Virus record (IMG/VR): IMGVR_UViG_3300028833_003520 | Direction: 5' to 3' (one strand) | From: a virus | Lineage: Duplodnaviria; Caudoviricetes | DNA: 64,000 nucleotides | Part shown: positions 2,035 through 56,464 of the stretch, in pieces | Layout of the letters: each line of letters opens with the position of its first letter | How positions within the stretch are numbered: position 1 is the stretch's first letter | Program-made: the position numbers and the translations under genes | The notes under the pieces: model-generated | The model's database searches: none | What the model was told of the DNA's origin: nothing | Seen by the model: only the letters and a program-made list of their open reading frames with translations

Positions 2035-2047
2035 AGAGGAGTAAAAT

Positions 2048-2345: not shown

Positions 2346-2888
2346 ATGAAGTTGCCAAAAGAATACAACAAGTCATTAAGACAATGGGCAAGAAATGTTG
2401 AAGAAGGCGATTACATTTTAGGTATCGCAGGCGTTTTGTTATCATCATTTATTGCACTTCCTTTCACCGTTAAAATCGTTTTAACGATAATGAAGGATTG
2501 TTGGATTTCAATATGGATTGGTGGCATCTGGTTAGCACTTGTGGTATTGGCAACGATTTCGGCAGTATTTGCGTCCGTTGCGAAAAACGGTATGAAAAAT
2601 GCCGAGAAGATTGTTGAAGAATATGATTGCGAAATAGCCACAGTACAAGATGTGTTATATAGTGGTTCGTCAACAAATCACTATCAGTTTATCTTTAATC
2701 TTAAAGATAAAAAGGATGCCAAAGTTCTCGCTGATATAGTTGATTGGGACGATATAACAGTACATCAAAAGGTTGGCAAAGAGGAATTTTATGTAGTTCA
2801 TATAGGACGATATTACTATGCGATTAAGAGGTCGGCAGACCCGTCATCGTATAGGTTGTTGGGCTTAGGTGAAGATATATTTTCTTGA
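2346..2888 (+). CDS. 2-TM membrane protein, tandem paralogue 1
   Basis: Starts MKLPKEYNKSLR; two hydrophobic helices; EYDC; beta-rich C-terminus. Confidence 0.7.
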   Translation: MKLPKEYNKSLRQWARNVEEGDYILGIAGVLLSSFIALPFTVKIVLTIMKDCWISIWIGGIWLALVVLATISAVFASVAKNGMKNAEKIVEEYDCEIATVQDVLYSGSSTNHYQFIFNLKDKKDAKVLADIVDWDDITVHQKVGKEEFYVVHIGRYYYAIKRSADPSSYRLLGLGEDIFS

Positions 2889-2901
2889 GAGGAGAAGTCT
2901 T

Positions 2902-3423
2902 ATGAATTTACCGTCAGAATACAACGAAAGATTGCGTTATGTAATCAAGAATGAAGCAGGAACTTATGCAGTAATCGTAGGAGTAGCGATGCTTTTGGTA
3001 AGTTATCCTTTTGCTAAACTTGTAGAAGACCTTTTCACAGAGTCGTTTACATCAGTACCAGAGTATGTGATTGTAGCAATTTCCATACTTTTCGTAGGAG
3101 CCGTAGTTGCTCTCTTCATAACGCAGTTGGTATCGCTTTCTTTCTTAAAGAAAGAGGAATATGATTGTCAATTGTGTACTATTAAGAATAAATTCTACAT
3201 TAAGAGCAATCCTGAAGGTGAGAAAGTGTCTTCTTATATATTGGTATTTGAAGAACCAAAAGTTCCAAACGCATTGGTTTCAAAAGAAGTATGGAAGTCA
3301 TCTTTTCAAGGAGACAAATGTTATGTAATCCGTTGTGGTATGTGGACATTTGCTTTCGAGACAGTAGAACGGTCTTCTGATGTGCGTAGATATATTGAGA
3401 ACGGTAAAGAGGTATGGGACTAA
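2902..3423 (+). CDS. 2-TM membrane protein, tandem paralogue 2
   Basis: Starts MNLPSEYNERLR; two TM; EYDC; GAGGAG RBS. Confidence 0.7.
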   Translation: MNLPSEYNERLRYVIKNEAGTYAVIVGVAMLLVSYPFAKLVEDLFTESFTSVPEYVIVAISILFVGAVVALFITQLVSLSFLKKEEYDCQLCTIKNKFYIKSNPEGEKVSSYILVFEEPKVPNALVSKEVWKSSFQGDKCYVIRCGMWTFAFETVERSSDVRRYIENGKEVWD

Positions 3424-3435
3424 AGGAGTGATAAA

Positions 3436-3930
3436 GTGATATTACCGAAAGAATATAACGCTCATCTTAAGCGTTGTGTTAAGCATAAAGATACAGCATT
3501 ATTACTGGTTGGTTCTTTAGGGATAATAGTGGCTACAGGCTTGCTTGTGGTCACTATACCAGTTATGCGTGATAAAAATAGCGATGGTATCTTGAAGTTA
3601 TCTGATATTGGTGCGATAGCGATATTTGCGTGTATGTTGCTCATAACGGTTACAATGGTGATTGTGGCAATAATGTCGCTTATTGCGATTCGAAAAAGTA
3701 AAACGGAATATAAATGTCAATGCTTTGCGTTAAAAAGCAAGGAACTACTCCGTAGTGCTGATGATGGAAATATAAGCGGATATATTCTTTACTTTGAGAA
3801 CAATAAAGGTAAAGAAATAAAGGCTGAACCCTATTCAGGTAGTGTTTGGTATTGGGCGAAGCCTAATGACAAGTTTTACATAGTTACAATAGGGTTCATT
3901 AACTATGCATTCGAGGTGAAAGATATATGA
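3436..3930 (+). CDS. 2-TM membrane protein, tandem paralogue 3
   Basis: GTG start after AAGGAG; MILPKEYNAHLK; two TM; EYKC. Confidence 0.7.
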   Translation: MILPKEYNAHLKRCVKHKDTALLLVGSLGIIVATGLLVVTIPVMRDKNSDGILKLSDIGAIAIFACMLLITVTMVIVAIMSLIAIRKSKTEYKCQCFALKSKELLRSADDGNISGYILYFENNKGKEIKAEPYSGSVWYWAKPNDKFYIVTIGFINYAFEVKDI

Positions 3931-4064
3931 ATACAACTGAAGGCATCATTTTCTTGATAATTCTTGTCGTGATATTAGGAATAATAGTGACAAGCATAAT
4001 TCGTGCCATATTTGAACCATCTTCAACCGAGGACTCTCGGTGCAGAGGTGGACACGATTTTTGA
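3927..4064 (+). CDS. small single-TM protein (45 aa, not in ORF track)
   Basis: GAGGTG RBS; ATGA overlap with upstream stop; MNTTEGIIFLIILVVILGIIVTSII. Confidence 0.5.
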   Translation: MNTTEGIIFLIILVVILGIIVTSIIRAIFEPSSTEDSRCRGGHDF

Positions 4065-4065
4065 G

Positions 4066-4106
4066 AAAAAAAAGAGGGGCATTCCTGTTAAGGAATACCC
4101 CTTTTC
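4066..4106. terminator. bidirectional intrinsic terminator
   Basis: A-tract, GGGGCATTCC...GGAATACCCC stem, T-tract; between convergent genes. Confidence 0.75.
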
Positions 4107-4129
4107 ATTAGCAATCAATGATGAATTGT

Positions 4130-4507
4130 TTAGACTACTTTCTTGATGGGAGCAGGGCGTACCTGTGCGTTAGACACAGTGCCGTGCTTTTCCATCTGCT
4201 TGAGTGCTCTACGATGCTCGTAACGACGCTGTGCGATTGCTTTCGCAACCTGTTCCTCATTCTTCATTGTTGCACCTGCTATACCGCCTGAAATGGCGAA
4301 TATAGCACAAGATACCCATACTCCTGTCCAAGTAGCAGATTCTTCTGCCTTGGTCATAGGAGTGTGCGTCTCATCAGCATAGTCGAAGTGTCCGACATAG
4401 CCTATCATAGCGAAAAAGGCGAGTGTAGCGATGAGTGCTGCAGGTATCATAACGATTCTTAACTTTGTTCTTTCCTTACGTAATCTTGCAAGACTTACAC
4501 GTTTCAT
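4130..4507 (-). CDS. 2-TM membrane protein
   Basis: GAAGGAG RBS before ATG 4507; two hydrophobic segments. Confidence 0.65.
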   Translation of the reverse strand: MKRVSLARLRKERTKLRIVMIPAALIATLAFFAMIGYVGHFDYADETHTPMTKAEESATWTGVWVSCAIFAISGGIAGATMKNEEQVAKAIAQRRYEHRRALKQMEKHGTVSNAQVRPAPIKKVV

Positions 4508-4650
4508 AGCGAGTTTCTCCTTCAAAGATAAGAATGAAGTTCAATAAGAACTAAGCCTTTTATGAAAATACGTGCAGTATTTGAATTGATTAAAGGGAGT
4601 AGTTAGATTAGAAATCCCAAACAAAAAGAACGGCTAATCAAAGCCGTTCC

Positions 4651-6387
4651 TTATATTCTGATAAGACCATTTATTGTCTGTCTCTGAAGGGGTACACAGA
4701 CCTTATCTTGGTCAGGTCCGTGATAACCTGGATTCATCCAATCCTTCAGGTCATAAACGAGGATTAAAGGCTCAGGTTTGAGCATTTTATCACCTGTCCT
4801 TATAGCCTTTGTCCTGCCAGGACAAATCCAACCGCAATCGGTTGTCTCAATTACTGCAAGAAGGTCAGTGATAAATGTGTTTTTACCTTGAAGCGAGCCG
4901 TTAGGCGAGTTCTTCTTAAACCACGCCTTATATCCATCGTAAAGGAATGCAAACGGCAGGACATCCCATACACAGCAAGGTAAGAATTCGTCAACGAATT
5001 GCTTGATAGGGTCGTTGAACATTTTGTAATCGTCCAATGCCGTGACGCATACATCAGGTTCAGAAAGTTCGTAATAGTTCATATTGAGAACTTTCCACAA
5101 AACATATTCGAGAACTTCTGTTCTACCAAGATAGTCATCTTTGATGTATCTTCTTTCGTGACCTGTGAAACACTTGTCAAAGGGCACGAATAATTGTCTT
5201 CTGTAGAATGAGTCGGATTTATCTTTAATTCGAGGCATCTCGTTGATACACTGAACCATAAATCCGTAGAACTGATAGGCGATAGGTGTCTTAAATTTTC
5301 TGTTCAACTGAATGACATCATTCGTGATGATGGCTTTCAGATTGGCAGCCTTGTCGATAAATTCACCGACGTTATTCTCGTCAACGATAATAGCGGTAGC
5401 CTGAAGCAGAGGTTCGAGCATAAAGTCTTTGCTGAAATCCGACAGAGGAATTGAAGCATAACTTTCTTTTCCACAAAGTTGTCTCATCAATTCGCAGAGC
5501 GTACCCTTACCGTTGTTACCTTTGTTGGAATAGAACCAAGCACTCTTGTTCCAACTAACGTGCGGTCTGATAATAGCACCTAAGATTTCCCAAAGGAGAT
5601 TTACGACCTGAGGGTTATCAGACAGTTCGTTCATCCAAGACTCGACATCCCAATCCGTATTATCAATAGGATTGTGGATAACAATGTTCGTGGCGTTAGG
5701 ATTGTAGTTGACACGAGATTTAGCGATGAAAACATACTTTGGGTCAAAATCATAGAGTTGTTTATCGGCATAATTAAAGATGCCGTTATTGACCGCAATC
5801 AAGTCTCTATCGGTGCATCTGACTTTTCTCTCTGCAAGGTCTTTCATTGCCATCTTAACTTCACTTATACCTTTAGAAGTGATGTTGTACTTAAATTGCC
5901 GAATGAGTTCGTTGAAGACATTATCTTTAGTTACATAGATACCCTTGTCGTGACCTTTATCTTGATAGATAGCAAGAAGGTCATACTCAACATCAGCGTT
6001 GGCTCCTGCACAAGCGATACGACAAATAGGGTACATAAACAGCAAAATATCCGCTATCTGCGATTCAGACAGGGAAGAGGGAAGTTGCCATTTTTCGCCT
6101 TTTTCAGCGTTAGCGTTATGTGCCTGGAAACAATCTATTGTAAGACGCAGTAAATCCTGTTGGATTTCTGACGGTGTTTTGCTTTTGTTGAAGAGGTTGC
6201 TCTCAAGATAATGTTTAGTGATGAGTTTCATATAGTCGTCTTTGGAACACAGTTCTGCAGAATTGGATAAATCAGCAAGAACTCTTGTATATTCAAGACC
6301 ATATGTAGCATCAGCATCAACGGTAGTGGCAGTATCAGTTTCAGATTCTAAAATTTCATCAGATACGATATTCTCGTCCTTAGGCAT
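4651..6387 (-). CDS. phage/plasmid D5/P4-type primase-associated SF3 helicase
   Basis: D5_N-like DLIAVNNGIFN; Walker A GNNGKGT; Walker B IIVDE; motif C CINEMP; FYRR arginine finger. Confidence 0.88.
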   Translation of the reverse strand: MPKDENIVSDEILESETDTATTVDADATYGLEYTRVLADLSNSAELCSKDDYMKLITKHYLESNLFNKSKTPSEIQQDLLRLTIDCFQAHNANAEKGEKWQLPSSLSESQIADILLFMYPICRIACAGANADVEYDLLAIYQDKGHDKGIYVTKDNVFNELIRQFKYNITSKGISEVKMAMKDLAERKVRCTDRDLIAVNNGIFNYADKQLYDFDPKYVFIAKSRVNYNPNATNIVIHNPIDNTDWDVESWMNELSDNPQVVNLLWEILGAIIRPHVSWNKSAWFYSNKGNNGKGTLCELMRQLCGKESYASIPLSDFSKDFMLEPLLQATAIIVDENNVGEFIDKAANLKAIITNDVIQLNRKFKTPIAYQFYGFMVQCINEMPRIKDKSDSFYRRQLFVPFDKCFTGHERRYIKDDYLGRTEVLEYVLWKVLNMNYYELSEPDVCVTALDDYKMFNDPIKQFVDEFLPCCVWDVLPFAFLYDGYKAWFKKNSPNGSLQGKNTFITDLLAVIETTDCGWICPGRTKAIRTGDKMLKPEPLILVYDLKDWMNPGYHGPDQDKVCVPLQRQTINGLIRI

Positions 6388-6449
6388 TGTCTATTCTCCT
6401 TTCTCAAGATTTACGCTTTTAAGCAGAGTGCGTAAAACTGCGGTGGTCA

Positions 6450-6647: not shown

Positions 6648-7410
6648 ACGCTTCTCCTTTCATAGAATTTGGCTCTTATATAGAGCCGAAAAGCACTTGA
6701 AAAGTGTGATGTTTAGTTACTTAAAGGTATATAAAGTATATCAACCTTTATCAAACGTAACCAAACTATATCATACTTACATATATTCGTCAACATAAAA
6801 TCCTTCAATTTTTAATTGATAAATGAGTAAATTTCGCAGATATAAGTTAATAAAAGAACAAAAAAAAAAAGAGCAAGTGCTCGTGTTCATACCGATAGGG
6901 TCCCTGTCCAAAAGATTGCTATCAGAACGGACTCGAATGAGGAAGTCTGATAAGAAAGTGATAAATGGAGTCAGGGTGGTAAGACGTTATCGAGAAATTT
7001 ACCATTAAATCTGTTGTTCAATGATTCTACGATTTTATCGTGTAAAAACTGGAAAATTTATGAAAAGGTTGGAATTTGGAACAAATTGCAAGCCGAAGGG
7101 TACTTTTTATGACATTTTTCAGTTTTAAGAAAAAGACTATGTGTTCTGAAAGAATCCAGAACATAAATGTGACGGATTTCTTTGGCGAAACGTAAGCGAA
7201 GCCTTTTCAAAATAGAAAAGAAAGAAATGTTATTTTCCGTGTTTATGGAGAGTTTTATTTGTTTCAAAGTTTATCTTATGAAACCAAAAGTAAAAGGATT
7301 TTGATAAAAGGAAAGGATTTTTGATTCTATGTTACAATTTGCAGAATTGCTTGATATATGAGCAAATTGGTGGTAAGGTGAGCATACATATATTGAAAGG
7401 AGAACTGAAG

Positions 7411-7860
7411 ATGAAGAAGTTCAAGTTTATCGTAGCCACAGCACTCATTGGAACAATGATGTTTGGTATGTGTGCGTGTGGGGGTGACAAGACCGATTCT
7501 GATAAGTCAGAGAAGGAAACAGAGGTTGAGGTTACTGTCGAAGAGTCCGAAGTATCTGAAGAGACAGAGGAGACGAAGGGTACTGAAGAGACTGAAGTAC
7601 CTGAGGAAACAGAGCACACCAAGATTGATGAGCACGGTATTCCTGATGATACCAAGCCTGATACAAATAAGCCCGATGGTGCACCTGACTCAACTCACCA
7701 CAGTCTTGAGTATGACGAAGACGGTAGAGTTCTTAAGGATGATGAAGATGATGCAACGCATTACGAAGAAGATGGAGCAAAAGATACTGCTACAACAGCA
7801 TCTATTATCTTTCATCTTGTAGATGGCGATTCAAAGCCTATGCCTCCGAGAAAACTTTAA
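7411..7860 (+). CDS. acidic lipoprotein
   Basis: Signal peptide MKKFKFIVATALIGTMMFGMCAC with lipobox Cys, then an E/T-rich linker. Confidence 0.75.
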   Translation: MKKFKFIVATALIGTMMFGMCACGGDKTDSDKSEKETEVEVTVEESEVSEETEETKGTEETEVPEETEHTKIDEHGIPDDTKPDTNKPDGAPDSTHHSLEYDEDGRVLKDDEDDATHYEEDGAKDTATTASIIFHLVDGDSKPMPPRKL

Positions 7861-8721: not shown

Positions 8722-9762
8722 TCATTTTAGTTTAATCGTTTTGATATTAGGGTTGTCGAATATCTTATTATTCACTTCCCTCATAACAGCCGTAGTAAGT
8801 GACCTGACACCTGTGCCTTCGTCGAAAGCAGCATTAGCGACTTGTTCGATATATGCGTCGGTGGCAGTAATTTTAATGCCGAATTCTGAGCCGATACGGA
8901 TAAGAGGGGAGTAGGTTTGATTACGCATAATATTAGCGAAATCATTTGCATCAAATTCGTCAATGAAGATAATATCTTCGATACGACCTCTGAGTTCAGG
9001 CGGAAGAATTTTGTTAACCTCGTCTAATGTGGGAACTTTAGCATTCTTTCGGTGTGTTATATCACAATTGGAAAATCCAATACCACTTATACTCGATTGT
9101 GCGTATTGGGCAAAAGAACCTGCAAAGATACAAACAACATCAGTACAGTCTATGGTTTCAATAGTACCATTTTTAGTAGGTCGATAAGGAAAACTCATAC
9201 CCTCAATCATTCGATAAAGTTCAGGCAAAGCAGATGCATTATGTGTATCTTGGAAGTTATTAGTAAGATATTTGTCAAACTCGTCTATTACTAATATAGG
9301 AACCATATTAGGATAATCTTGACTCTTATTTTTAAGAATATAGAGGTTGGCTTGAATATTGTTTTCTCCTGTGTAACTGGAGTTGATACAATTTGCACCG
9401 TCAATGATTTGCATACAAGGGTATATCTTCTCAAGAATACGGAGAAGTTCGGTTTTTCCGCAGCCAGATTGACCTACGGTAAGTAAAGCACCTTTAGGAC
9501 GATATCCGTTAAGGATTCGCCATAAAAAGATGCTGATAGTCTTTTTATAAGTTTCGTTACCGTATAATTGAGCATCAAGGACATCATAAATTTGTTTTGG
9601 TGTCCAGGAAGCGGAAATCTGTGGAATGGGTGTAACAGATTTACGTGCCGAAGTTTTCTTCGATGAGGTTCGGTAGAACGAATCGCCGAGAACTTTGTAC
9701 GGCGTTTTATCTTTCAAAATACTGCTCTTATAAAAAGACACCTGAACCGAAGGTTCTGCCAT
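8722..9762 (-). CDS. ClpX/HslU-like AAA+ ATPase (no Zn-binding domain)
   Basis: Walker A GQSGCGKT; Walker B VIDEFDK; IFAGSF; SGIGF (IGF loop); PELRGRI; GTGVRSL sensor 2. Confidence 0.8.
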   Translation of the reverse strand: MAEPSVQVSFYKSSILKDKTPYKVLGDSFYRTSSKKTSARKSVTPIPQISASWTPKQIYDVLDAQLYGNETYKKTISIFLWRILNGYRPKGALLTVGQSGCGKTELLRILEKIYPCMQIIDGANCINSSYTGENNIQANLYILKNKSQDYPNMVPILVIDEFDKYLTNNFQDTHNASALPELYRMIEGMSFPYRPTKNGTIETIDCTDVVCIFAGSFAQYAQSSISGIGFSNCDITHRKNAKVPTLDEVNKILPPELRGRIEDIIFIDEFDANDFANIMRNQTYSPLIRIGSEFGIKITATDAYIEQVANAAFDEGTGVRSLTTAVMREVNNKIFDNPNIKTIKLK

Positions 9763-9989
9763 AATTTATAATTCTCCTTTGTTATGGAAACTGTTCGTTT
9801 ATGAAAGAATTTTACAATATTTTCGGTGATAAATCAAATGTAGAGATATGCAGATTTATAGCACGATATGTAATAATTTATAACGATAATTATTACTTTA
9901 ATTATTACTTTGTCAGAACAAAGAGAAAATAAAATGTGTGGCAAAATTGAGTGAAAGCAATGACAGGTCTGTGTCAAATGTCAGGTGGG

Positions 9990-11063
9990 TGTTATCATCG
10001 TAATGTAACTTATGCAAAAGGCATTTTACTCCTTAAGAAAGAAAAGGGCAGGGATGTGTGTTACCCCGTCCTTTTCTTTTTGTTAGGCGTGTATTCCAAT
10101 TTTTCCATCGAATGATATAATAGGAGAATCAAAGTCCAAGTTACCTCGCAAGACATTGATAAAAGTGGTATGTTTATTCTTACCAAGTTAGGTTATGAGA
10201 TAGAAGAGTCAAGTCAGCCGCTTGGCTCTTTTATTTTATCAAAGACTGTGGTAGATTAGTTGTTATAGTAGTAGTTTAACTGACGGTAAATATGGACTAC
10301 TTACTGGTTTCCTTTCTATGCAAAGAGCAGTCCGAAGAGGGCTGTTCTTTTAAGTTAGAAGGTGATACAATAGCAATGTAATTAGTTATGCTAACTAACT
10401 TTTTACAATTCAGATACAGATGTATTCTTCATCGAGCATTAAGGACAGAAGGCACTCTGTCCTTTTTGTTTGGTGTATGCTATAATCGGTTCAAGGCTTA
10501 TGATATTAACTCATTCGCCACCTTTCAAAAAAGATGCAAAGAGGACGGTTATTTACCGCCCTTTTTGTTTAGAAGATGTCATTTATTTGATAGAATTGAT
10601 GTTATAATGAATGTATAATTAGAGTAGTCAGGAAAGCCATAAGACTATCTCTTTGGGATTTTGCAGTAAGGGTGGGTATATCCCACCTTTATTGTTTATG
10701 ATATAATCAGTCTGTTGCCATTGCCATTGGTGACGAGAATAAACTTGAGGCACACATATGACGCAAGATAGGCAGAGGTTTTCCTCTGCTTATTTCGTTT
10801 TTACAGATTTGTCCAGGATAAGAAGTAACGCAATTGTAATGCACAAGTGTTATAGTTGTGCTATAATACGATTACTGATTATCTATTCACGACCTTAGGT
10901 ATTTCAGTTTTCAAGATTCGAGATAAAGCAGTCATTAGCAGTCCTTGTGGCTGCTTTTTCTTTTTGGTATAATGATTGTAGAAAGGTGATTACATCATCT
11001 TTTTGTTTCTCATTAACGGCAGGGAAGGACAGGAGCAACATCGCCTGTCCTTTTCTTCGTTTT
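9990..11063 (+). ncRNA. tandem array of nine predicted small RNA transcription units
   Basis: Extended -10 TGnTAnnnT (mostly TGnTATAAT) at 9990, 10113, 10261, 10363, 10478, 10600, 10699, 10859 and 10965; each followed by a unique 40-85 nt body and a GC stem plus U-tract terminator; no credible ORFs. Confidence 0.7.
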
Positions 11064-11173
11064 ACAGTATGAGATTTTATTCTAATACTGGTTTCAATCT
11101 CTTTTACAAGAAAAGAACTCGGCTATCAAAACAATAAGCGACGGTTGTTTCGGAGCATTATTAGTTTTGGGTA

Positions 11174-11377
11174 GGGAAGAATCGGGGACAAAGTAGGGAA
11201 TAGGTGGGGACAAATCGGGGACATTTCAGGGACAATGTGAAGATAGGTGGCTTGAATGTGATTGATTAACATCTCAATGTGAATATCAAAGGCTATTATG
11301 TGAAGAAATGTGATTGAAGCAGCAGATTGATGTGAAGATTTGAGCATCAAATGTGATTAAATAGACGACTGATGTGA
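11174..11377. repeat. helically phased short repeats (centromere/iteron-like)
   Basis: GGGA at 11174, 11185, 11196, 11207, 11218, 11229 (11-bp period); ATGTGA at 11235, 11256, 11277, 11298 and 11308, 11330, 11351, 11372 (21-22-bp period). Confidence 0.75.
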
Positions 11378-11930
11378 ATTTCACGCAGTTTTACACAGAA
11401 AAACTGGTTAAAATTTAGTGATAGGTGCTTTTCTGAGAGGTTATCTCTAAAAAAGTCGCCTATTTTTTCGTGATAACGGTTTGCGAATGGAAATATTCCA
11501 AAAGGAATAATATTATTCTTATAGGAATATTTTTATGACTGACAGGAATATCGTTATTCCTAATAGCATATCCGAACGGCATATTTCGAAGCGTAATTTC
11601 GTCCCAATGTTTTACAGGGAAGGGGATGAGAGTGCTCGTATTGGTATCAGGCGGCGGAATTTTGAAAATTCTCGGCGAGTTTTTGAAATCAGAGAGGTTG
11701 TTTTCGAAATTTACCTCAAAATTTGCACCGAAATTTTTCATAATGAGAAGTGGTTCGGACAGCAAATTATGTATAGAAATGTATGGGCAAAATATGTTTT
11801 ATGTAGATTAAACAGAGTTTTGCAGCGTAATTTTACATCAGAAAGAGGAGCCAAAAAGTGTGTCACGCTCTTGAGCGACTCCAAAAATGTTAAGTTTAAT
11901 GTAGATTAAACCCTTGTTTTTGAGAAAATT

Positions 11931-12291
11931 TTCTATACATTCTATACGTTTCTATACCCCTTTTCTATACATTCTATACACAAGAATCCTTAAATTTAGG
12001 GCTTTATAGCCATTTGTATAGATTGTATAGAAAATATTTAAGTCAATTATAGAGCCTTTTTATTTTTTCGTGTAGCACACTTCCCATTTTTCTCAGTGTA
12101 AATCAAAAGACAATTTTTAAGATAATAAATGACTTGTAAAAATTCTATACTTTCTATACAAAGTACCGCAAACCCTTATAAAATAAGGCTTTGAGGCGTA
12201 TAGAAATGAAATAGCGTTTCTATACATTCTATACACGAACCTCTGAAACGCCTATGAAATAAGGGTTTTGGGCGTATAGAATTTTCTATAC
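11931..12291. repeat. TTCTATAC iteron cluster, candidate replication origin
   Basis: TTCTATAC at 11931, 11940, 11950, 11963, 11972, 12143, 12152, 12218, 12227, 12284; inverted GTATAGAA at 12025, 12198, 12274; bracketing CCTT-A/T-rich-AGG palindromes. Confidence 0.7.
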
Positions 12292-12364
12292 ACGCTTTTA
12301 GCAGGTATTTTCCAGTGTAAAATACCGCAGTTTGATAAGATTCAAATTTTTTTGTGTAATACTA

Positions 12365-12393
12365 TTGACATTATCCATATATGGGATTATAGT
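12365..12393 (+). promoter_or_regulatory. sigmaA-type promoter with CCATATATGG operator (copy 1)
   Basis: TTGACA-ttatCCATATATGGgat-TATAGT, 17-bp spacer. Confidence 0.85.
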
Positions 12394-12584
12394 TCGGATT
12401 AGAGATGGTACTAATCTATATTAGTTATATAGTTAATAGTAAGTACAAAAATTACGAAAAAATTTGAACGAAAACTGTTGACAAGGCTAAAATGGCGTGG
12501 TAACATCAAGTTGATGTAATCAATCGTAAGAGAGATTCATCTACGACAAATTTCAATTCTTTATAAGTAAAGGAGAAAACAGTT

Positions 12585-13121
12585 ATGGCAAACGTAAGAA
12601 AAGACGTAATCGGTCCTGACGGCAAGTCTGGTATGAAGGGCAGAGAAATCATCGCAAGAGTAGTTGAGCGTGACGAAAAGAATGGTAAGGGTTATTATAT
12701 GAATGCCCAGTTGAACCAGTCTTTCGGTAAGCCCGTGAACACAACTTCACAGCCTCATCTCGCAAAGGCTCACTCTTTCAAGGGTAATGACGGTACAGAG
12801 AGAAACTCTTATGATATTCGTCTTGGACCTAAGCAGGTAGAGGCACTCAAGGCTAATTCCAAGTCTTGCACACTCGAAGATGGTTCCACAATCTACGGTT
12901 TCACCGCAGACCTTATGAAGACCAAGGACAACGGACTTATGCCCGACTTTGGTACTCTCAAGCCCACTTCCAAGAAGATTGACGACAAGTCTTGGGCAAA
13001 GCAGTCTGCTACAACTCAGAAGGCTTTCAAGGCTGGTGAGGCACAGCGTGCTGCTAAGGCTGCTGAAAAGACTGCAGAGGCTCCTGCAAAGGATGACGCT
13101 CAGGCAGAAATCGGCGGTTAA
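12585..13121 (+). CDS. hypothetical protein, probably highly expressed
   Basis: AAAGGAG RBS; biased codon usage; own terminator; Ala/Lys-rich tail ending QAEIGG. Confidence 0.8.
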   Translation: MANVRKDVIGPDGKSGMKGREIIARVVERDEKNGKGYYMNAQLNQSFGKPVNTTSQPHLAKAHSFKGNDGTERNSYDIRLGPKQVEALKANSKSCTLEDGSTIYGFTADLMKTKDNGLMPDFGTLKPTSKKIDDKSWAKQSATTQKAFKAGEAQRAAKAAEKTAEAPAKDDAQAEIGG

Positions 13122-21202: not shown

Positions 21203-24200
21203 GTGGCAAAGCGAAATTGGGATTTAGTTCGTAAACAGCAGAACGCTGATAAGTTGCAATATCGTGATGTATATGAAGACCAGCAGATGGAACGAAGCAA
21301 GTTGCCTGCAAAGCAGACAGCGACGGCTCGTACCATATTTGCTATCGTAGTTGCTCTTATGGCTGCAGGTGCAGCGTATGCGATTGCGTGTGTCTTCGGT
21401 TCATTGTTTAGCGGTTTAGGGGATATAGGAAGTACAGATACAGGTTCAGGGGGACAGGGTACTGTCATAGAACAGCCTTCGGAAACCGCTTCATCAACAG
21501 GTGTCAGAATCGAGAGTGGCACTGTTATTAAGGATTCCGTTGTTGTTATCAGTACAACGACAGGTGAGACATTAGATACTTGGGTTTATACGAACCTTGA
21601 TAACGGTGACGTAAGGTATATCTGTGATGCTCATCCTGGTTATTCTTTTGCAACAGAGTATGAAATCGCAGATGGTTACAAAAATGGCGTATGGTATTTA
21701 GATGAAGCCGCACAGCAGAGTGCTACATCAGTTTATTGGGATTACCATACGACGTGGATGACACTTTATCGTGGTGACCCGAACGGGGAACACACGGAAA
21801 TAGATACTTGGGAAAATACAGGTGGTGTTTATGGTGAGCAGTACACTTGCTCTAATCATCCGTCTTTCAGTTTTAGCGACCAAGAATCCGTTGAGGCTCA
21901 TTATGATTCCGAAGGTAATTGGTCAGATACAGTAGTTTCACAAGGTAATGCAGGACAGGAAAGTTCTACAGATAGCGGTGATATGCCGTCTATATCCTTT
22001 GGTGTGGACTGGACTCCTTCATTCGGTAAGATTTTATTTGCAATAGCCGTTGGTGGTATTGTTTTTGCTCTTTTACACACGGCTATGATGCGTAACTTGA
22101 AAGCACAGAATATGCTTTCAGATACCTCTGATATTAACCAATATCAGAACGACCAGCATATTGCTCTCCCTGAAGAAATTCAGGAGAAGTTTGACTGGTT
22201 TCCCGATGTTGGTGCGACCTCGGATGTACAATTCTCGTCAATGATTTCGCATATGGCTCTTTCTAACAAGGGTATTAAGAAAGTCAAGTTCTCGAAGCGT
22301 GCAGATAAGGATATCTACGACGCAGACGGAGATATTGAATACTATAAGGGCGAAGTTCTTCTTGATGATAATGGACAGCCGATTCAAACAGAGGTTCCGA
22401 TGTTTGATGAGCAGTTTATGGAAGACCTTTTTACTGCTTCAGGTGCTCCCCCGAAGGATAAAACGATTCGTAAGTATTACGATGCGACGAAGATTAAGTA
22501 TAATCCTGACGGAAGCAATCGAGATAAACTTGGCAAGTATAACACAGTTGCAGACCTTATCAATGCCGATTGGGAATTGCCTTATTATGAACCTCAAAGA
22601 CCTGCAGGTGCATATATCGTAGATACTGCTCCTGTAAATACGATGGTCTTGGCTATTACCCGTGCAGGTAAAGGTCAGACTGTAATCGAGCCTACGCTCG
22701 ATATGTGGATGCGTGAGAGAAGACCTAACAATATGGTTATAAATGACCCGAAGGGTGAGTTGCTCGTTAAGAACTATGTTAGAGCAACTGTTAGAGGTTT
22801 CCAAGTTGTTCAGTTTAACCTTATCAACGCTATGAAAACCGACATTTATAATCCGTTAGGAATGGCAGCAGAAGCCGCACGAGAAGGAGACTTCACCAAA
22901 TGTGCAATGTACGTCGAGAACATCGCAGATGTATTCTTCCCTCTTGACGGTGGTGATGACCCTGTGTGGCCTAATGCTGCGAACAACGCATTTAAGAGAG
23001 CATCTTATGGTCTTATCGACTATTATCTTGAGGAAGAAAAGGAGTTACGCCTTTTCGCCGAAAGAACGAAGATGGACGAAAAGATACTTGAGGCTAAATT
23101 GGACGAGATGTGGGGTAAAGTTACGCTTTACAACACTTATCAGTTGTTCGTTCAGTTGACTTCGAAGAAGTTAAAGAACCCTTCTGTTGAATTCGCAAAG
23201 AAGGCAAAAGAGGGTGAATATGATAATCTTTCTGATGAGGATTATGATATCGAACTTAATAAGGTTGAGAGACAGTCTTTACTTTGGGAAGACAAGCCTG
23301 AGTGTGACCTGTTGACCTTGTACTTCAATGCAACAGATGCGTTGCCGAGAAACTCAATGAGAACTCTCGTTGCAAACGCAAACAATGCGTTGAAGGCGAT
23401 GGCTGGTGCTGAGAAGATGATGGCATCCGTTTACGGTATTGCTATCACGGCTATGTCGTTCTTCACAGACCCGACGATTTCAACACTGACATCAGGCACA
23501 CCTTCGCAGAATGTTGACCTTGCAGGTCTTTCATTCCCTCGAAGATTAGGCGTAAGATTTAACTCAGACTTCGTGCATAACTATCATCTGATTGGTATGC
23601 AGGCAAAATGGATGAGTTACGAGGACGATAAGTTTACGAAGGAACTCGGTAAAGACTTTTATCACGAAGACCTTATTACAAGAGAAGGTTGGGCAAAGTA
23701 TTACTTCAAGGGCAAGTACCCTAATGATGTTGCTTATGTTAAGTTATCTATCGTTAATCCGAAGACGGAATTGACAATCAGAACATTCTACTTCCAGTTT
23801 AAGAAGAACTATCAGACTTCATTGGACGGACGTAAGTACGTGCTTGACCCTGTACTCAATGAGAAGATAGTTAAGAATGGTATTCTGACAGAGTTGAGAC
23901 CGTTCAGACAGGAGACGAAGGATGGTAAGCAGGTATTAGTACCGCTTGCTATGGGTGAAAAGCCTGATGCGAACACAGTTTATAAGAAAGGTAAGACGAC
24001 TTTTGCTCAGGATAAGATTATCAATATCACTGGCGACTCCACGAGGGGACAGGTTCAGACCAATGCTATTATCAGAACGATGGCTCGTTATGCAGAAAAG
24101 CCGAAGATGGTATTCTTGGTTACACCTCCTCACTTGATGAAGTATGCGAAGTTGATTCTTATTCTTATCAAGCAGTTGGTTGACTTGAACTTCGACCAGT

Positions 24201-25579
24201 CTTATATGACGAAATCCAATCAGAAGCCTCTCTATAAGACGAGATTTATGTTGGATGAGTTAGGTAACCTTCAGTCCGAAGGACACGGTATTTCAGGCTT
24301 TGAAACGATGCTTTCTATCGGTCTTGGTCAGGAACAGCAGTTTACTCTTATCTTGCAGACATTACAGCAGTTGAGAGACGTTTATGGAGACTCTGTTGAT
24401 AAAATCGTTCAGGGTAACACATCTAACATTGTGTTCCTTAAATCAACGGATGACTCAATGCTTGATACTCTGCAGAAAATGTCTGGTACAACGCATAAGT
24501 CTTTTACTGATTCAAAGACAGTAACAAGGGATATGCAGGAGATTTTCCAAGGTATGAGTGCTAACGAAGGTAAGGCATCTTATACGATGACTACTAAGGA
24601 AGTGCCTGTTATTTCGTACAACGATATGGCGTTCATTTCTGAGCGTAATAGTATTGTGTTCCGTGCAGGTGATGCACCGATTTGGAACAGAAACGAGACT
24701 ATCCTTCCGATGTCTTGGAGACTTTTCAAGAATACTATTACACAGCCTGGTAAGGAATATACCTTGCAGACGATACCGACACTTTCTTCGGCTATCGACT
24801 TCGATGTACGTAAGAATCAGCCTGACTTCCAGAAGATGCTTGATAAGCGTATGGCTCAAGCAAATAAGGCTCCTGATGCAAAGAGTTTGTATCAGATGTC
24901 TTATGATTTCACTGATTATCAGATGGAACAGCAGGACCCTGATATTCTCGCAGATGAAATTATGGATATCATTAACACATATATCCGTGAGGCAAATACT
25001 GACGAGGAAGAAGAGGAAGTATTTGACTATGATTTCGGCGAAGACGATATGTGGGGTTTTGCAGAAGATGATAGTTCAACACAGGAAATGGTCAGTGCTA
25101 TCGCTAATGGACAGTCAATCCCTGTTAATGGCGTAGATAAGACCTTTGTAGGTGTTGATAAAACTGCTTCAGAGAAGCGTTTCGCAGGCGGTCTCTTATC
25201 ACCTGATATGCTCGTCAATGCGTCAGGTATAAACCATAGTCTTGATAAAGACATCATTAAGGTTTACACAGATATTAAAGGCGACTTATGGCGTGATACA
25301 GCGTACTTTGTTGTACGCAATGGAGACCTTTATGGTATTAACAATGAGCCTTATATCATTAAGGCAGATAACTCCGAAGCCCTTGAGGTATTGAATAATG
25401 CCGCCAAGGATGAAGATAGTAACGTCTATGGTGACGAGGATATTGATATATCTGAAGTCCATTCATTCGGCACTTATACAGTAACGGATGGTTTCTATCG
25501 CTTCCTTGCAGGGCAGAAGAGGTGGTCTTTCGCAAACGGTAAGTTTGAAGAGGCTATGTATCGACAATTAGATTCGTAA
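21203..25579 (+). CDS. virD4: VirD4/TraG-type type IV coupling protein
   Basis: Two N-terminal TMs flanking an extracellular domain; Walker A AITRAGKGQT; VINDPKGEL; YNPL; Walker B FMLDELGNL; LILQTLQQL...YG; NTSNIVFL. Confidence 0.88.
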   Translation: MAKRNWDLVRKQQNADKLQYRDVYEDQQMERSKLPAKQTATARTIFAIVVALMAAGAAYAIACVFGSLFSGLGDIGSTDTGSGGQGTVIEQPSETASSTGVRIESGTVIKDSVVVISTTTGETLDTWVYTNLDNGDVRYICDAHPGYSFATEYEIADGYKNGVWYLDEAAQQSATSVYWDYHTTWMTLYRGDPNGEHTEIDTWENTGGVYGEQYTCSNHPSFSFSDQESVEAHYDSEGNWSDTVVSQGNAGQESSTDSGDMPSISFGVDWTPSFGKILFAIAVGGIVFALLHTAMMRNLKAQNMLSDTSDINQYQNDQHIALPEEIQEKFDWFPDVGATSDVQFSSMISHMALSNKGIKKVKFSKRADKDIYDADGDIEYYKGEVLLDDNGQPIQTEVPMFDEQFMEDLFTASGAPPKDKTIRKYYDATKIKYNPDGSNRDKLGKYNTVADLINADWELPYYEPQRPAGAYIVDTAPVNTMVLAITRAGKGQTVIEPTLDMWMRERRPNNMVINDPKGELLVKNYVRATVRGFQVVQFNLINAMKTDIYNPLGMAAEAAREGDFTKCAMYVENIADVFFPLDGGDDPVWPNAANNAFKRASYGLIDYYLEEEKELRLFAERTKMDEKILEAKLDEMWGKVTLYNTYQLFVQLTSKKLKNPSVEFAKKAKEGEYDNLSDEDYDIELNKVERQSLLWEDKPECDLLTLYFNATDALPRNSMRTLVANANNALKAMAGAEKMMASVYGIAITAMSFFTDPTISTLTSGTPSQNVDLAGLSFPRRLGVRFNSDFVHNYHLIGMQAKWMSYEDDKFTKELGKDFYHEDLITREGWAKYYFKGKYPNDVAYVKLSIVNPKTELTIRTFYFQFKKNYQTSLDGRKYVLDPVLNEKIVKNGILTELRPFRQETKDGKQVLVPLAMGEKPDANTVYKKGKTTFAQDKIINITGDSTRGQVQTNAIIRTMARYAEKPKMVFLVTPPHLMKYAKLILILIKQLVDLNFDQSYMTKSNQKPLYKTRFMLDELGNLQSEGHGISGFETMLSIGLGQEQQFTLILQTLQQLRDVYGDSVDKIVQGNTSNIVFLKSTDDSMLDTLQKMSGTTHKSFTDSKTVTRDMQEIFQGMSANEGKASYTMTTKEVPVISYNDMAFISERNSIVFRAGDAPIWNRNETILPMSWRLFKNTITQPGKEYTLQTIPTLSSAIDFDVRKNQPDFQKMLDKRMAQANKAPDAKSLYQMSYDFTDYQMEQQDPDILADEIMDIINTYIREANTDEEEEEVFDYDFGEDDMWGFAEDDSSTQEMVSAIANGQSIPVNGVDKTFVGVDKTASEKRFAGGLLSPDMLVNASGINHSLDKDIIKVYTDIKGDLWRDTAYFVVRNGDLYGINNEPYIIKADNSEALEVLNNAAKDEDSNVYGDEDIDISEVHSFGTYTVTDGFYRFLAGQKRWSFANGKFEEAMYRQLDS

Positions 25580-25653: not shown

Positions 25654-25772
25654 AAAAAAAAAAATCGCCCTTTCATAGAAAGGACGACTTTTTAAGAAAA
25701 GGAAATATATGAGAATATTGATTACTTCTATCAATATTTGTCATTGTTTTTAACGCTGTATTTATTTTACCA
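25654..25772 (-). ncRNA. predicted sRNA with the same architecture as the 10-11 kb array
   Basis: Minus-strand TGGTAAAAT (25772-25764); body containing UUCUCAUAUAUUUCCUUUUCU (anti-AUG/anti-SD); terminator GUCGUCCUUUC-UAU-GAAAGGGCGAU plus U-tract. Confidence 0.5.
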
Positions 25773-26887: not shown

Positions 26888-29800
26888 ATGGCTTATAGCG
26901 TTGCTTATAAAGATTGGTTATTTAACTGCGGTAATCGTAGTGAATATATCATCTATCGTGCAATAGAAGAATTCAGTAGGCAGAGAGAAGAACGGGGCGA
27001 TAGACCCGTTTCTCTTAGTGAGGGAGTCGCTTTGCGTCAGCAGATTCTTAAGAATCTTGAAAGCAATCCCGAAATCAATAGTTATGTTTCTGATGCATAC
27101 GATATAGGTTTGAAGTCACTTTCAAACCGTATTCAGATGAATCCTATCTTGATGTCAATTCAAGCAGAGGGTTCATTTGCGAAGATTTTCGGTGGAAAGT
27201 CTTATGAGAATGTATCGAAGGAACAGTTAGATAGCATTATCGTGACACAGGAAAACAAAGCAAAAGATAGACGAGAATCTTTTATTGAGTCTATCAATGA
27301 GGTTTTGCCTGGCATCGAACTTAATGAAGAAAAGTTCAATAACTTAATTACGACTTATACGAATGCGGTAGTAAGTGTTAGGAACAATGGTTCATATTCT
27401 TATGAGCCTGCGGTGCCTTTGTCACCGTATTGTCCTGCATTTACGACTCGTAGTTTTACTTATAAAAATCCTGCGTTGTCTTTGATGAAGAAGTCAGATA
27501 AGCAAACAGCAGATGGCAATTATGCCGATTTTGTACGCATTTATCATCCGACAAGAGATGATATCGAGGACCAGTACGACGATTTCATTCGTTTCTATAA
27601 GGCGGAGTATGCAACTTTTGGTGAGAATACTAAAGGTCGTGGCGATAGTGCCAAGACCAATATTATTAAGACCGATGTTCCTACTTTCTACACGAATGAA
27701 GATGATTTCTATCTGAATGGTTTGAGAAAATACTTGACAGAAGAAGATGCAGCGAAGGTTATTAAGCATTGTAATCGTTTCGTAGATAGAACAGGCACAC
27801 CTTATAAGCGTGCCAATATGAAGAAAAGTATGGAATTGCTCCAGCGTATCGCTGAGGCTGGTTACGACTATACTATAGTACCGAAAGCAGGCGGTCAGGT
27901 TGATTGCCGTGTTTCCGTGTTGGGTTCTAATTACGATATAAGTATGATACCTCAACCAAACCAGTCCTTTGCGTATAACTTCGGTAGAGTATTTTGTCGT
28001 GAGAGTGGTGTTTCCTATAACCTGAATACACAGAATAAGTCTCCTGAAAAGGGTTACAAATACGAACCCTACGAAGCAAGTGTAACAGATGCTATGAATC
28101 TGTTGAAGTTTGCTATGGGAGAACCTGTTACTGTTGATACAAAGAATAATGTACCTTTAGGTAAGCACCGTTTGATTTCGTTCAACACTCCGAAGGGAAC
28201 AGTATATCGTAATAACGCATATTATAATAAGGGTAATGAGCAGATAAAGAACTTTACTGCTTACTATGGTCGTTCTTCTGACGGTGTAAACGTATTCTTG
28301 AAGGCTAATACTTCTGAGGTTACACCGAAGACGGCTCGTTTTGGTAGGAAAGGCGTTTCAAAGGAAGAAGACGCTGAACTTCATCTTAAAGAGTGGATTG
28401 AGTCTGCAAGACAGACATACACTGACGAGATGGATTTGGAGAATCTTATTCGTGAAGCAAGAGACCATCAGAATGACCCTGATTATGAGTTTAGATTCTC
28501 AGGTGTACCTGAAATCTATGCTATGCAGAAGAATTACTGGAATGTTCTCACAGGCAAAGAGCACGCTCTTGCTAAAGTAGGTCAAGATGACGATGAGTTT
28601 GATGAAGTTGGTGTTGAGAGAGCATATTATGAAGGCTCTCCTGAAGACAAAGTGCGTCAGCATTTTGCAGATTCCATTCATCACGATATCGGCACTTTTG
28701 AGCCTGATGCAAATGGTAAGAGGTATAGCATATATGGTCTTACCAATTATGCTGTAACTGACTTTAACTCAACTCGTTTCAGATTATCTGTTGTAGCAGC
28801 AACTAATCTGTTAGGCTTTAAGCCTGATGAGTTACAAGATACAGATGCTCAAGGCGATAGCGTAAAGAATATGCTTATCCGTTATGATGAAAAGACGGCA
28901 CAGCCTATTTTCCATCACGAGAGCAAATTCGTTCGTAATATGGGTTCCGTTATTAAGGACACTCTTCAGCAGAGTGGTATCGTAATTGAGGATGACGATA
29001 TTACGATTGACGATAACGGTATCGTGCAGTACAAGGGTAAAAAGGTCATTAACGGAGAATTCCGTCGTGACCCGAAGGCTAAGCGATATGGCACAGTTAG
29101 TATCGAAGATGGCTTGGATAAGCCTGAAGAAGTTGTAGGTCATATCGGTCAGATTTTTGCTCCTGAAGGCAAGTACAACACAGTTACAACGAAGTTTGCA
29201 GGCACAAAGAACTATATGTTCGTGCCTGGATATACAGCGAAGATATTGCCACAGAAAGATGGCGAGAATTTGCCTTATGAGGCAAGAACTCGTCTGTTGG
29301 GTTATGAGCAGTTGATGAGTCAGCGAATCAGGTCTCAGTTGCGTAGTGACCTCTTTATGACCATAGATAACTATGATGGTGCAGCATTAGGTATGAACAC
29401 ATCTCTGAATAAGGTTTATACGAACCTTTATGATGTGCGTCATCCTGTGGACTATATCGAGCGTTCAAGGGAAGAGGGAATGGATGACAGTTTCCTTGAG
29501 GCTGTTCTTGCTACAGAGGCACGCAGAGTCAGATATGATAGTGTCTATAAAGAACAGGCGACACTTAATGCTTATTATCAGGCATATACTCATAAGAGTA
29601 CGCTTATTGATGATAGAAATGTCAACCCTCTCACTCTGACAGGCTTTAGAAATATGGCTATTATGACAGAGGAAGGCGATGGGTATTTTGACCCTGATGC
29701 TACTTCCACTGGTATGAACCAAGGTGTTACAAGATACCTTGTCGAGAGTGCAGAAGTATTACCTGACGGTAGTATCAAGCGTGGCGACTTGGATGATAAG

Positions 29801-55777: not shown

Positions 55778-56464
55778 TCAATTAACATTACAGTATATTA
55801 TATCTGGCTTTTTATCACCTACACCATCTGCACTACTGTTTATCACGCTAATAGGAACACAAGTCTGAGCATAGGCAGGCAACTCCTATACTTCTTGCGT
55901 TGAGCCGAGGCTCCATAGCCTATGAGGGATTGATACCCCCAGCCGTCACCCACTTGGACGAATCCAAGCAAAACCATTCAGAAGAAGTAGGGATATTTCA
56001 TATTCCTAAAAAATCGTCATCTTCTTCCGCCTTGGGCTACAGACAAGTGTGGCTTGCGTTATAGTCACCATTACAGTGACATCACGGCGAATCATCTTGG
56101 GGTGCATTCCCAACAGAGCATCCTCATTTGCGGTGAGGTGGGTAGTAATTAGACGAGTCTAATACTACGCTTATTGGGTTATTCTCCCACAGGGAGCGTC
56201 TATTGCGATGACCACAAGCCCACTTACGCTAACATCATACAGGTGTGTGCTATGTCCCGTGAAACGAATATTGTTATACCGCTTGAACGATGGTCACCCA
56301 AGAATCGACAGTTCCAAATGGAAACCCAAATGGAAGAGCGACGTTCAAATTGCCCACAAGAGAAGTATCCTTCTCTATCAGGCTTTTTCGGTGGGACGTA
56401 CCTCAGCAGGGTGGTTAACCCTTCGTGCACTGAGTTACATATAACACACTGTAATGTCAATTCA
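55778..56464 (-). ncRNA. large (~690 nt) structured ncRNA, ROOL-like candidate
   Basis: 5' and 3' ends form a ~24-bp helix whose three mismatches are G-U only on the minus strand; many internal hairpins; raised GC; no credible ORF; own terminator. The family name is a guess from size and context. Confidence 0.7.

Follow-up and report, generated by a model that had tools for sequence, protein, structure and literature searches.

Antisense control of plasmid replication is textbook knowledge, and the RNAs that exert it, as in CopA/CopT of R1 and the Inc RNA of ColIb-P9, are single and encoded opposite their target. Small RNA (sRNA) genes are also known in tandem on a chromosome, where the paralogous LhrC1-5 genes of Listeria share one sequence and one regulon. 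Antisense-RNA control of a plasmid replication gene has further been described for RNAII/repB of pMV158 (PMC4485353) and antisense control of plasmid replication for the FinP-like RepX RNA (PMC8136791), and SR1, which acts on ahrC, is a trans-acting sRNA of Bacillota that blocks ribosome binding (PMC1935000). Here we describe a locus that shares features with each of these types, a tandem array of nine predicted sRNA genes (w1 to w9) occupying ~1.1 kb of the + strand (9990-11063) of a stretch of 64,000 nucleotides (nt), IMG/VR virus record IMGVR_UViG_3300028833_003520, the whole of which we call the window and which we treat as part of a large conjugative plasmid. We put at roughly one in two the probability that these are nine separate sRNA genes, some of whose products pair in trans with the initiation regions of the plasmid's own mRNAs and thereby set their dose. 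Searches of the literature turned up no account of unrelated sRNA genes arrayed naturally on a plasmid.

The array lies in a non-coding region (9763-12584) with divergent gene blocks on its two sides. Extended -10 boxes of the form TGnTAnnnT, with at most one mismatch to TATAAT, were located by a scan: 11 are on the + strand within 9990-10973 and 26 on the rest of that strand (63 kb, ~0.4 per kb), with a single box on the - strand of the array. Such a box is present in 9/9 units, is a perfect TGnTATAAT in five of them, and occurs as two overlapping copies in each of units 6 and 8. A cassette detector, defined by an extended -10 box plus a strong hairpin and T-run 35-140 nt downstream, returned all nine units (Table 1) and only two further matches on both strands of the 64 kb. 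Every unit ends in a strong terminator, with hairpins of -11 to -21 kcal/mol, and all have one orientation. A generic sigma-70 scan that requires a -35 box detects few of the nine promoters, which are therefore of the extended -10 kind and lack good -35 boxes. Predicted RNA lengths are 76-110 nt, and the RNAs are predicted to fold into a 5' stem-loop, an unpaired linker and the terminator. In silico, each short non-coding body is thus framed by its own promoter and Rho-independent terminator, as is expected of trans-encoded sRNAs.

An earlier, preliminary description of this DNA, made from the sequence alone, had listed nine promoter-to-terminator units here, and the box scan and detector recovered all of them at its coordinates; the five motifs that it quoted are likewise all present. 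It had also held that the units are alike in build, unlike in sequence and not an array of clustered regularly interspaced short palindromic repeats (CRISPR), and this is borne out, as the bodies are mutually unrelated (the best local score, 18, is inside the shuffle range) and the array contains no direct repeats, only the -10 boxes and generic terminator tails recurring. Nothing common to the units thus corresponds to the regular, near-identical direct repeats of a CRISPR or other repeat-spacer array. Its reading of several bodies as complementary to ribosome-binding sites fared unevenly: units 3 and 5 carry segments resembling the complement of a Shine-Dalgarno (SD) sequence (p=0.01 each against shuffles) and unit 2 is marginal (p=0.06), but unit 1 falls short of significance (p=0.12) and units 6 and 9 cannot be told from shuffles.

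Known classes of RNA gene did not account for the array. ARAGORN found no tRNAs in it and Rfam 15 (LhrC, RsaE and SR1 included) gave no family match, permissive thresholds included in both cases, and the best Rfam score, 27 bits against a threshold of 54, was to a eukaryotic small nucleolar RNA. The open reading frames (ORFs) of 20-76 amino acids (aa) in the array cross terminators or promoters and have no SD at a start inside a predicted transcript; on inspection, no credible SD-equipped ORF was found in the cassettes on either strand. Nothing is encoded opposite the array, and a small hydrophobic toxin ORF with an SD and an overlapping RNA, as in type I toxin-antitoxin systems, was not found in it. 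Like LhrC1-5, the locus consists of side-by-side sRNA genes with a promoter and a terminator each and with C/U-rich open segments of the kind that bind SD regions; unlike LhrC1-5, its nine bodies are unrelated, belong to a plasmid and show turnover among close relatives.

Table 1. Cassettes, candidate pairing segments, candidate targets and adjoining repeats in the window (SD, Shine-Dalgarno sequence)
Feature	Position	Strand	Details	Detector cassette
w1	9990-10085	+	-10 TGTTATCAT at 9990-9998; predicted start ~10005; terminator 10036-10081	9990/10081
w1 seed AUUUUACUCCUU	10023-10034	+	predicted to pair with SD-to-start region of gene 2048	
w2	10113-10240	+	-10 TGATATAAT; predicted RNA ~110 nt; terminator 10198-10236	10113/10236
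w3	10261-10354	+	-10 TGTTATAGT; terminator 10322-10350	10261/10350
w3 5' segment CUGACGGUAAAU	10280-10291	+	complementary to gene 2902	
w3 conserved 17-nt core	10302-10318	+	common to L007 unit g	
w4	10363-10474	+	-10 TGATACAAT; terminator 10434-10471	10363/10471
w5	10478-10572	+	-10 TGCTATAAT; terminator 10538-10566	10478/10566
w5 anti-SD-like segment CGCCACCUUUC	in open linker	+	p=0.01 against SD consensus	
w6	10588-10698	+	-10 boxes at 10588 and 10600; terminator 10663-10695	10600/10695
w7	10699-10804	+	-10 TGATATAAT; terminator 10760-10799	10699/10799
w8	10848-10965	+	-10 boxes at 10848 and 10859; terminator 10920-10962	10859/10962
w8 block CCUUAGGUAUU	10893-10903	+	predicted to pair over primase start codon	
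w8 conserved core UUUUCAAGAUUCG	10908-10920	+	in open linker	
w9	10965-11063	+	-10 TGGTATAAT; terminator 11023-11054	10965/11054
w9 conserved core UUUGUUUCUCAU	11002-11013	+	common to L007 unit c	
Candidate target, primase initiation region	6369-6412	-	AAUCUUGAGAA just 5' of SD; AAUGCCUAAGG over start codon	
Candidate target, SD and codons 2-5 of gene 2902-3423	2887-2917	+	173 aa, no known family	
Candidate target, SD-to-start region of predicted gene 2048-2344	2036-2047	+	98 aa	
Iteron-like repeats, two sets, directly downstream of array	11170-11400		GGGGAC-type 11170-11235; ATGTGAA/ATGTGAT-type 11233-11383	

Relatives of the locus were found through conserved neighbour proteins of 600 and 178 aa. 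One of them, the 222-kb contig L007, has neighbouring genes that are ~70-80% identical to those of the window at the nt level and carries, at the same locus and on the same strand, seven cassettes of like build. BLAST detects no similarity between the two arrays. They share as exact words a 17-mer (w3 and L007 unit g), a 13-mer (w8 and unit b) and a 12-mer (w9 and unit c); in 200 shuffles the longest word shared between the arrays was 13 and never more. The flanks of these cores cannot be aligned between the window and L007, the adjacency of w8 and w9 is retained in b and c, and the w3/g unit has moved. Short conserved cores inside replaced cassettes are the pattern expected of base-pairing seeds. 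In the predicted folds the unpaired linker takes in the whole of the w8 core and most of the w9 core, and part of the w3 core is tied up in a weak 5' stem-loop; these candidate seeds, conserved in divergent homologues, are thus accessible to differing degrees.

The array is an accessory locus with fast turnover, as the image of an expandable cassette library in the preliminary description had suggested: unit number (nine against seven), content and order differ between the window and L007, and no array stands at the locus in the more distant relatives L018, L021 and L023, nor in L101. In L023 its place (2919-4745) is taken by a 608-aa protein with matches to the RNA polymerase alpha-CTD and sigma-70 region 4. 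Among strain variants w7 is the most variable unit (in strain X4, w7 and its spacer have 10 changes in 120 nt and w8 and w9 together have 0 in ~230 nt), and w4 carries several indels. Nucleotide searches of phages and plasmids with the array region gave no match. With the neighbouring AAA protein as query, no related locus was found among viral and genome contigs, its ~50% homologues sitting in other contexts with arrays absent, and a metagenome scan with the 178-aa protein recovered nothing.

For candidate targets, the nine bodies were screened against the -35 to +20 regions of 57 predicted gene starts in the window, that is, over 64 kb or about a quarter of the plasmid. The best duplexes beat 300-400 dinucleotide shuffles with family-wise p-values of 0.0125 for w8, 0.0125 for w3 and 0.010 for w1. 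Three control sets were used (reverse-complemented targets, gene interiors and the opposite strand of the sRNAs), and for w1, w3, w4 and w8 the best duplex with an initiation region was 4-14 kcal/mol stronger than any control; the remaining five units had no such advantage. An unbiased BLAST of the bodies against the window pointed the same way, with 5 of the 20 strongest matches at most 25 nt from a start and on the correct strand, where ~2% are expected. When full-length RNAs were cofolded with their self-structure included, the pairs w8-primase, w3-2902 and w1-2048 were kept and two others were dropped, w4 with gene 50281 and w1 with gene 60577, both of which had shown good duplex energy. 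Complementarity beyond chance was thus found for w8, w3 and w1, and in L007 for the cassette Lc; it was not found in the 64-kb window for w2, w4-w7 or w9, and no specific target was found for w5 despite its anti-SD-like segment. The preliminary description had reported no exact targets in the window, which is right for full-length exact matches only, there being partial, supported matches at three gene starts, and the comparison with shuffled bodies that it had proposed as a check came out in favour of w8, w3 and w1.

The pairing of w8 concerns a D5-type primase/helicase (4651-6387, - strand; identified by Pfam and PHROG primase matches). Its RNA and the primase leader have three collinear complementary blocks, in which UUUUCAAGAUU, part of the w8 core, pairs with AAUCUUGAGAA, CCUUAGGUAUU pairs with AAUGCCUAAGG, and a third short block follows; the duplex is predicted at -32.2 kcal/mol (0/1000 shuffles for the pair) and the gain on cofolding at -18.8 kcal/mol (p<=0.007). 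In w3, 12 nt of the 5' segment are perfectly complementary to codons 2-5 of gene 2902 and the anti-SD core pairs with the SD of that gene (cofold gain -15.8, p<=0.007). The match of w1 to gene 2048 is 11 nt long and exact, is the top w1 match in the unbiased BLAST and gives a 12-bp duplex (cofold p=0.03). A parallel to w8 exists in L007, where the plasmid's own primase leader has its best antisense match over 21 kb, a perfect 13-mer, in Lc. This match falls at the leader site of the w8 block, in a cassette other than the one that carries the w8 core; the two primase leaders differ there (GA vs AU), and each plasmid's sRNA fits its own version. In relatives without an array, no such match to the primase leader was found. 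A second candidate in L007, the cassette Lg with gene 9734, has a perfect 13-nt match but is borderline (p=0.05 and 0.11).

The cassettes might instead be non-functional relics, that is, decaying duplicates of gene 5' ends caught by accident between sequences resembling promoters and terminators, or might encode micro-peptides on either strand. In favour of this, w8, w3 and w1 have the collinearity with antisense gene 5' ends that duplicates should show, the equivalents of the SD and ATG are degraded in w8, and unit b of L007, as we read its sequence, has a 20-codon ORF behind AGGTGG. We nevertheless consider this very improbable. Neither relics nor micro-peptide ORFs would lead one to expect an extended -10 box in all nine units, five of them perfect, with a strong terminator throughout and a single orientation; the conserved segment of w8 in the FKIR frame has no start codon within the transcript, and minus-strand readings of the conserved cores have no SD or start at a usable distance. 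Moreover, Lc matches the lineage-specific version of the primase leader, which a relic would not track.

Sequence from RNA libraries is available for the locus. Metatranscriptome contigs from two runs cover 10020-10444 and 10511-11183, and cover the array about twice as well as its flanks, of which 9613-10019 and 11184-11544 are uncovered, which proves nothing.

Several points weigh against pairing of these RNAs with the plasmid's own mRNAs. The p-values are ~0.01 each and come from an energy model without kinetics applied to gene starts that we predicted ourselves, and for five of the nine RNAs the 64 kb searched yielded no supported target. w8 pairs around the primase SD and not with the SD itself, and another reading of it is a direct duplicate of the 5' end of the primase gene, now in decay. 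The L007 cassette that carries the w8 core, Lb, pairs non-significantly with the L007 primase leader (p=0.18), and the window ortholog of L007 gene 9734 (gene 13690) has a leader that is not complementary. Three relatives manage without an array at the locus. Lastly, the metatranscriptome contigs bridge terminators, are shallow, carry no strand or end information and may reflect DNA carry-over.

How w8 relates to the plasmid counter-transcript RNAs can be stated more closely. Those are short, constitutively made plasmid RNAs with a promoter, stem-loops and a terminator within ~100 nt, which pair with the leader or ribosome-binding site of a replication gene and inhibit it in proportion to copy number, and the same is proposed here for w8. 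Complementarity to a replication-gene leader is present, in three imperfect blocks (and as a perfect 13-mer in L007). Counter-transcript RNAs are read off the DNA strand opposite the target gene, so that their complementarity to the target is perfect, whereas the w8 gene is ~4.5 kb from the primase start, with no overlap between the two (w8 at 10859-10965, primase leader at 6369-6412). It is also one of nine unrelated units, others of which are apparently aimed at other genes, unlike the single counter-transcript RNAs. With SR1-type sRNAs the array has in common that the RNAs are encoded in trans as independent transcription units, with imperfect multi-block pairing around the initiation region; unlike those single, chromosomal and signal-responsive genes it is a plasmid array, and there is no homology in sequence or structure.

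On the reading that we prefer, in which part of the array acts on plasmid mRNAs, each predicted RNA would be made from its own host-type extended -10 promoter and ended by its own intrinsic terminator, exposing a short unpaired segment between the 5' hairpin and the terminator. Some of these RNAs would pair in trans at or beside the ribosome-binding sites of plasmid mRNAs and block ribosome binding, the candidate targets being the D5-type replication primase for w8, gene 2902 for w3 and gene 2048 for w1. As the promoters look constitutive and are carried on the plasmid, RNA levels should follow plasmid copy number. The array might thus work like the classical antisense copy-control inhibitors, moved away from the targets and multiplied into a panel, and the targets could be expressed in a burst on entry into a new cell and damped once the RNAs accumulate. 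The architecture, the enrichment of promoters and cassettes, the second array, the conserved cores and the complementarity statistics are observed; that the RNAs are transcribed, that they pair in vivo and repress, and that this is tied to copy number or establishment is what we infer.

If this is right, large conjugative plasmids are able to regulate several genes through trans-acting RNAs encoded away from their targets, which would offer a testable route to copy-number setting and post-transfer timing in giant plasmids of uncultured gut Bacillota, as well as natural, compact and orthogonal silencing cassettes. Complementarity to targets would also serve as a functional lead for other ORF-free cassette arrays on mobile DNA. 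A bolder and rather doubtful extension is that the array is an evolvable silencer library, through which the plasmid would govern its replication and establishment genes by RNAs that are programmable and sense copy number. A new cassette would arise when the 5' end of a gene is copied between a promoter and a terminator and transcribed in antisense; the copy would then be trimmed to its specific blocks and lose the generic anti-SD part, and sRNA-leader pairs that differ between related plasmids would amount to RNA-based incompatibility or identity.

Iteron-like repeats lie directly downstream of the array (Table 1) and may, from their sequence, be the vegetative replication origin. Further on, upstream of the gene for the 178-aa protein, TTCTATAC(A) is repeated about a dozen times in the window, in direct and in inverted orientation (11925-12300); these repeats recur in L007 (3036-3432) and L101 (1760-2240) and are present in every relative examined, array-less ones included, so that L018, L021, L023 and L101 all retain these operator-like repeats downstream. 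Judged from their sequence, they look like an operator or partition-site array for a DNA-binding protein.

These surroundings bear on whether the array acts at the level of DNA or transcription, by opening or priming the origin, soaking up RNA polymerase or insulating the origin against divergent transcription. The array is directly upstream of the iteron-like repeats (11170-11400) and the conserved operator-repeat region, and all nine units, each tightly terminated, point towards the iterons. Such a role would nevertheless leave three things unexplained, namely the conservation of short cores amid replaced promoters and terminators, the complementarity of the bodies to gene starts, and the array-less relatives that have the same operator region. 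We regard it as improbable.

The same sRNA genes could have host, defence or competitor mRNAs as their main targets, silencing host polynucleotide phosphorylase (pnp) after transfer, for example. This would be compatible with plasmid targets, and we hold it to be possible though rather unlikely. In seven Lachnospiraceae metagenome-assembled genomes and one metagenome contig (L034, L040, L044, L049, L052, L054, L061 and L137), the SD-to-start region of pnp contains a perfect complement of the 17-nt core common to w3 and Lg; the leader sequence concerned, UAGAAAGGAAACCAGUAUAUG, is the exact complement of the w3 core, and its conservation extends over a clade of uncultured Lachnospiraceae from the gut. 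The 17-mer also matches one Lachnospiraceae leader each of an MCGIAGF-type amidotransferase and an Obg-like GTPase, the open segments of w3 and w5 are anti-SD-like, and extended -10 promoters together with low G+C fit a host among the Bacillota, which they suggest for the plasmid. Against this, the 17-mer is itself SD-like, and about a third of its 40 genome matches are leaders of unrelated genes in unrelated phyla, so that, among 185,579 genomes, chance alone should yield a leader match. In viral contigs and metagenomes it gave chance matches to coding DNA, plus one pnp and one amidotransferase leader. The genomes with the pnp match are mostly from mouse or human gut and have ~50% G+C, not from the rumen, and in five of them the w5, w8 and w9 segments matched no better than a reversed-pattern control. 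When the whole array was compared by BLAST with 301 Lachnospiraceae genomes, most matches were look-alikes of terminators and promoters, and the 12 places inspected were noise and not gene starts. We therefore treat pnp as a lead for a host target and not as evidence, the 17/17 match alone not being significant, and do not count it because the core is SD-like, the w5, w8 and w9 segments showed no targets there and the family-wide BLAST was noise. The preliminary description had proposed a battery of trans-acting antisense RNAs against host, defence or competitor mRNAs: architecture, the second array, the short conserved cores and turnover fit such a battery, but those targets are unsupported, the best-supported ones being the plasmid's own genes and above all the primase.

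As to the element itself, a 243,497-bp contig assembled from sheep gut/rumen metagenome DNA (JGI 3300031992, Ga0310694_10000022) contains a stretch identical to the window, and a second contig has a near-identical copy of it. It codes for a 1458-aa VirD4/TraG-type coupling protein (21203-25579) that is 54-58% identical to those of plasmids of Streptomyces, Gordonia (pGKT2) and Rhodococcus, a closeness that is unexpected for a rumen element of 40% G+C. The gene order AAA ATPase, ~800-aa protein, coupling protein is retained across phyla, and in pGKT2 the matching order stands beside a MobL relaxase. Because the identity of the coupling protein and the gene order match large actinobacterial plasmids, we treat the host element, on its sequence, as a large (~243-kb) conjugative plasmid of the MobL/VirD4 type from the sheep rumen. 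Besides the primase/helicase, the window codes for a ClpB-like ATPase, ThyX and a DNA methylase. A 2136-aa ORF (26888-33298) has as its sole domain match RNA polymerase Rpb1 domain 2 (E 1.7e-8), and no match to its protein was found in the phage collection. A full-length ROOL RNA lies at 55787-56458 on the - strand and scores 198 bits, where the gathering score is 99.

The non-coding region is followed first by the gene (12585-13121) for the 178-aa protein, which is present in all relatives (41-71% identity) and matches no Pfam family. Its structural model (pLDDT 74) is beta-rich with a long C-terminal helix; Foldseek with this model, run to check the idea of an RNA chaperone, returned nothing at E<=0.001 and only weak SSB/OB-like rows (E>0.06). 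In L007 an enzyme of the poly(A) polymerase/CCA-adding type is encoded at 4967-6355, 2.3 kb downstream of the sRNA array, and could matter for small-RNA turnover. The window also has a lone promoter-terminator cassette at 25659-25772 (- strand), in the gap after the coupling-protein gene, which may be a further small RNA, and comparable lone cassettes occur in L007 at 7219-7387 (+), 7399-7481 (-) and 12366-12467 (+).

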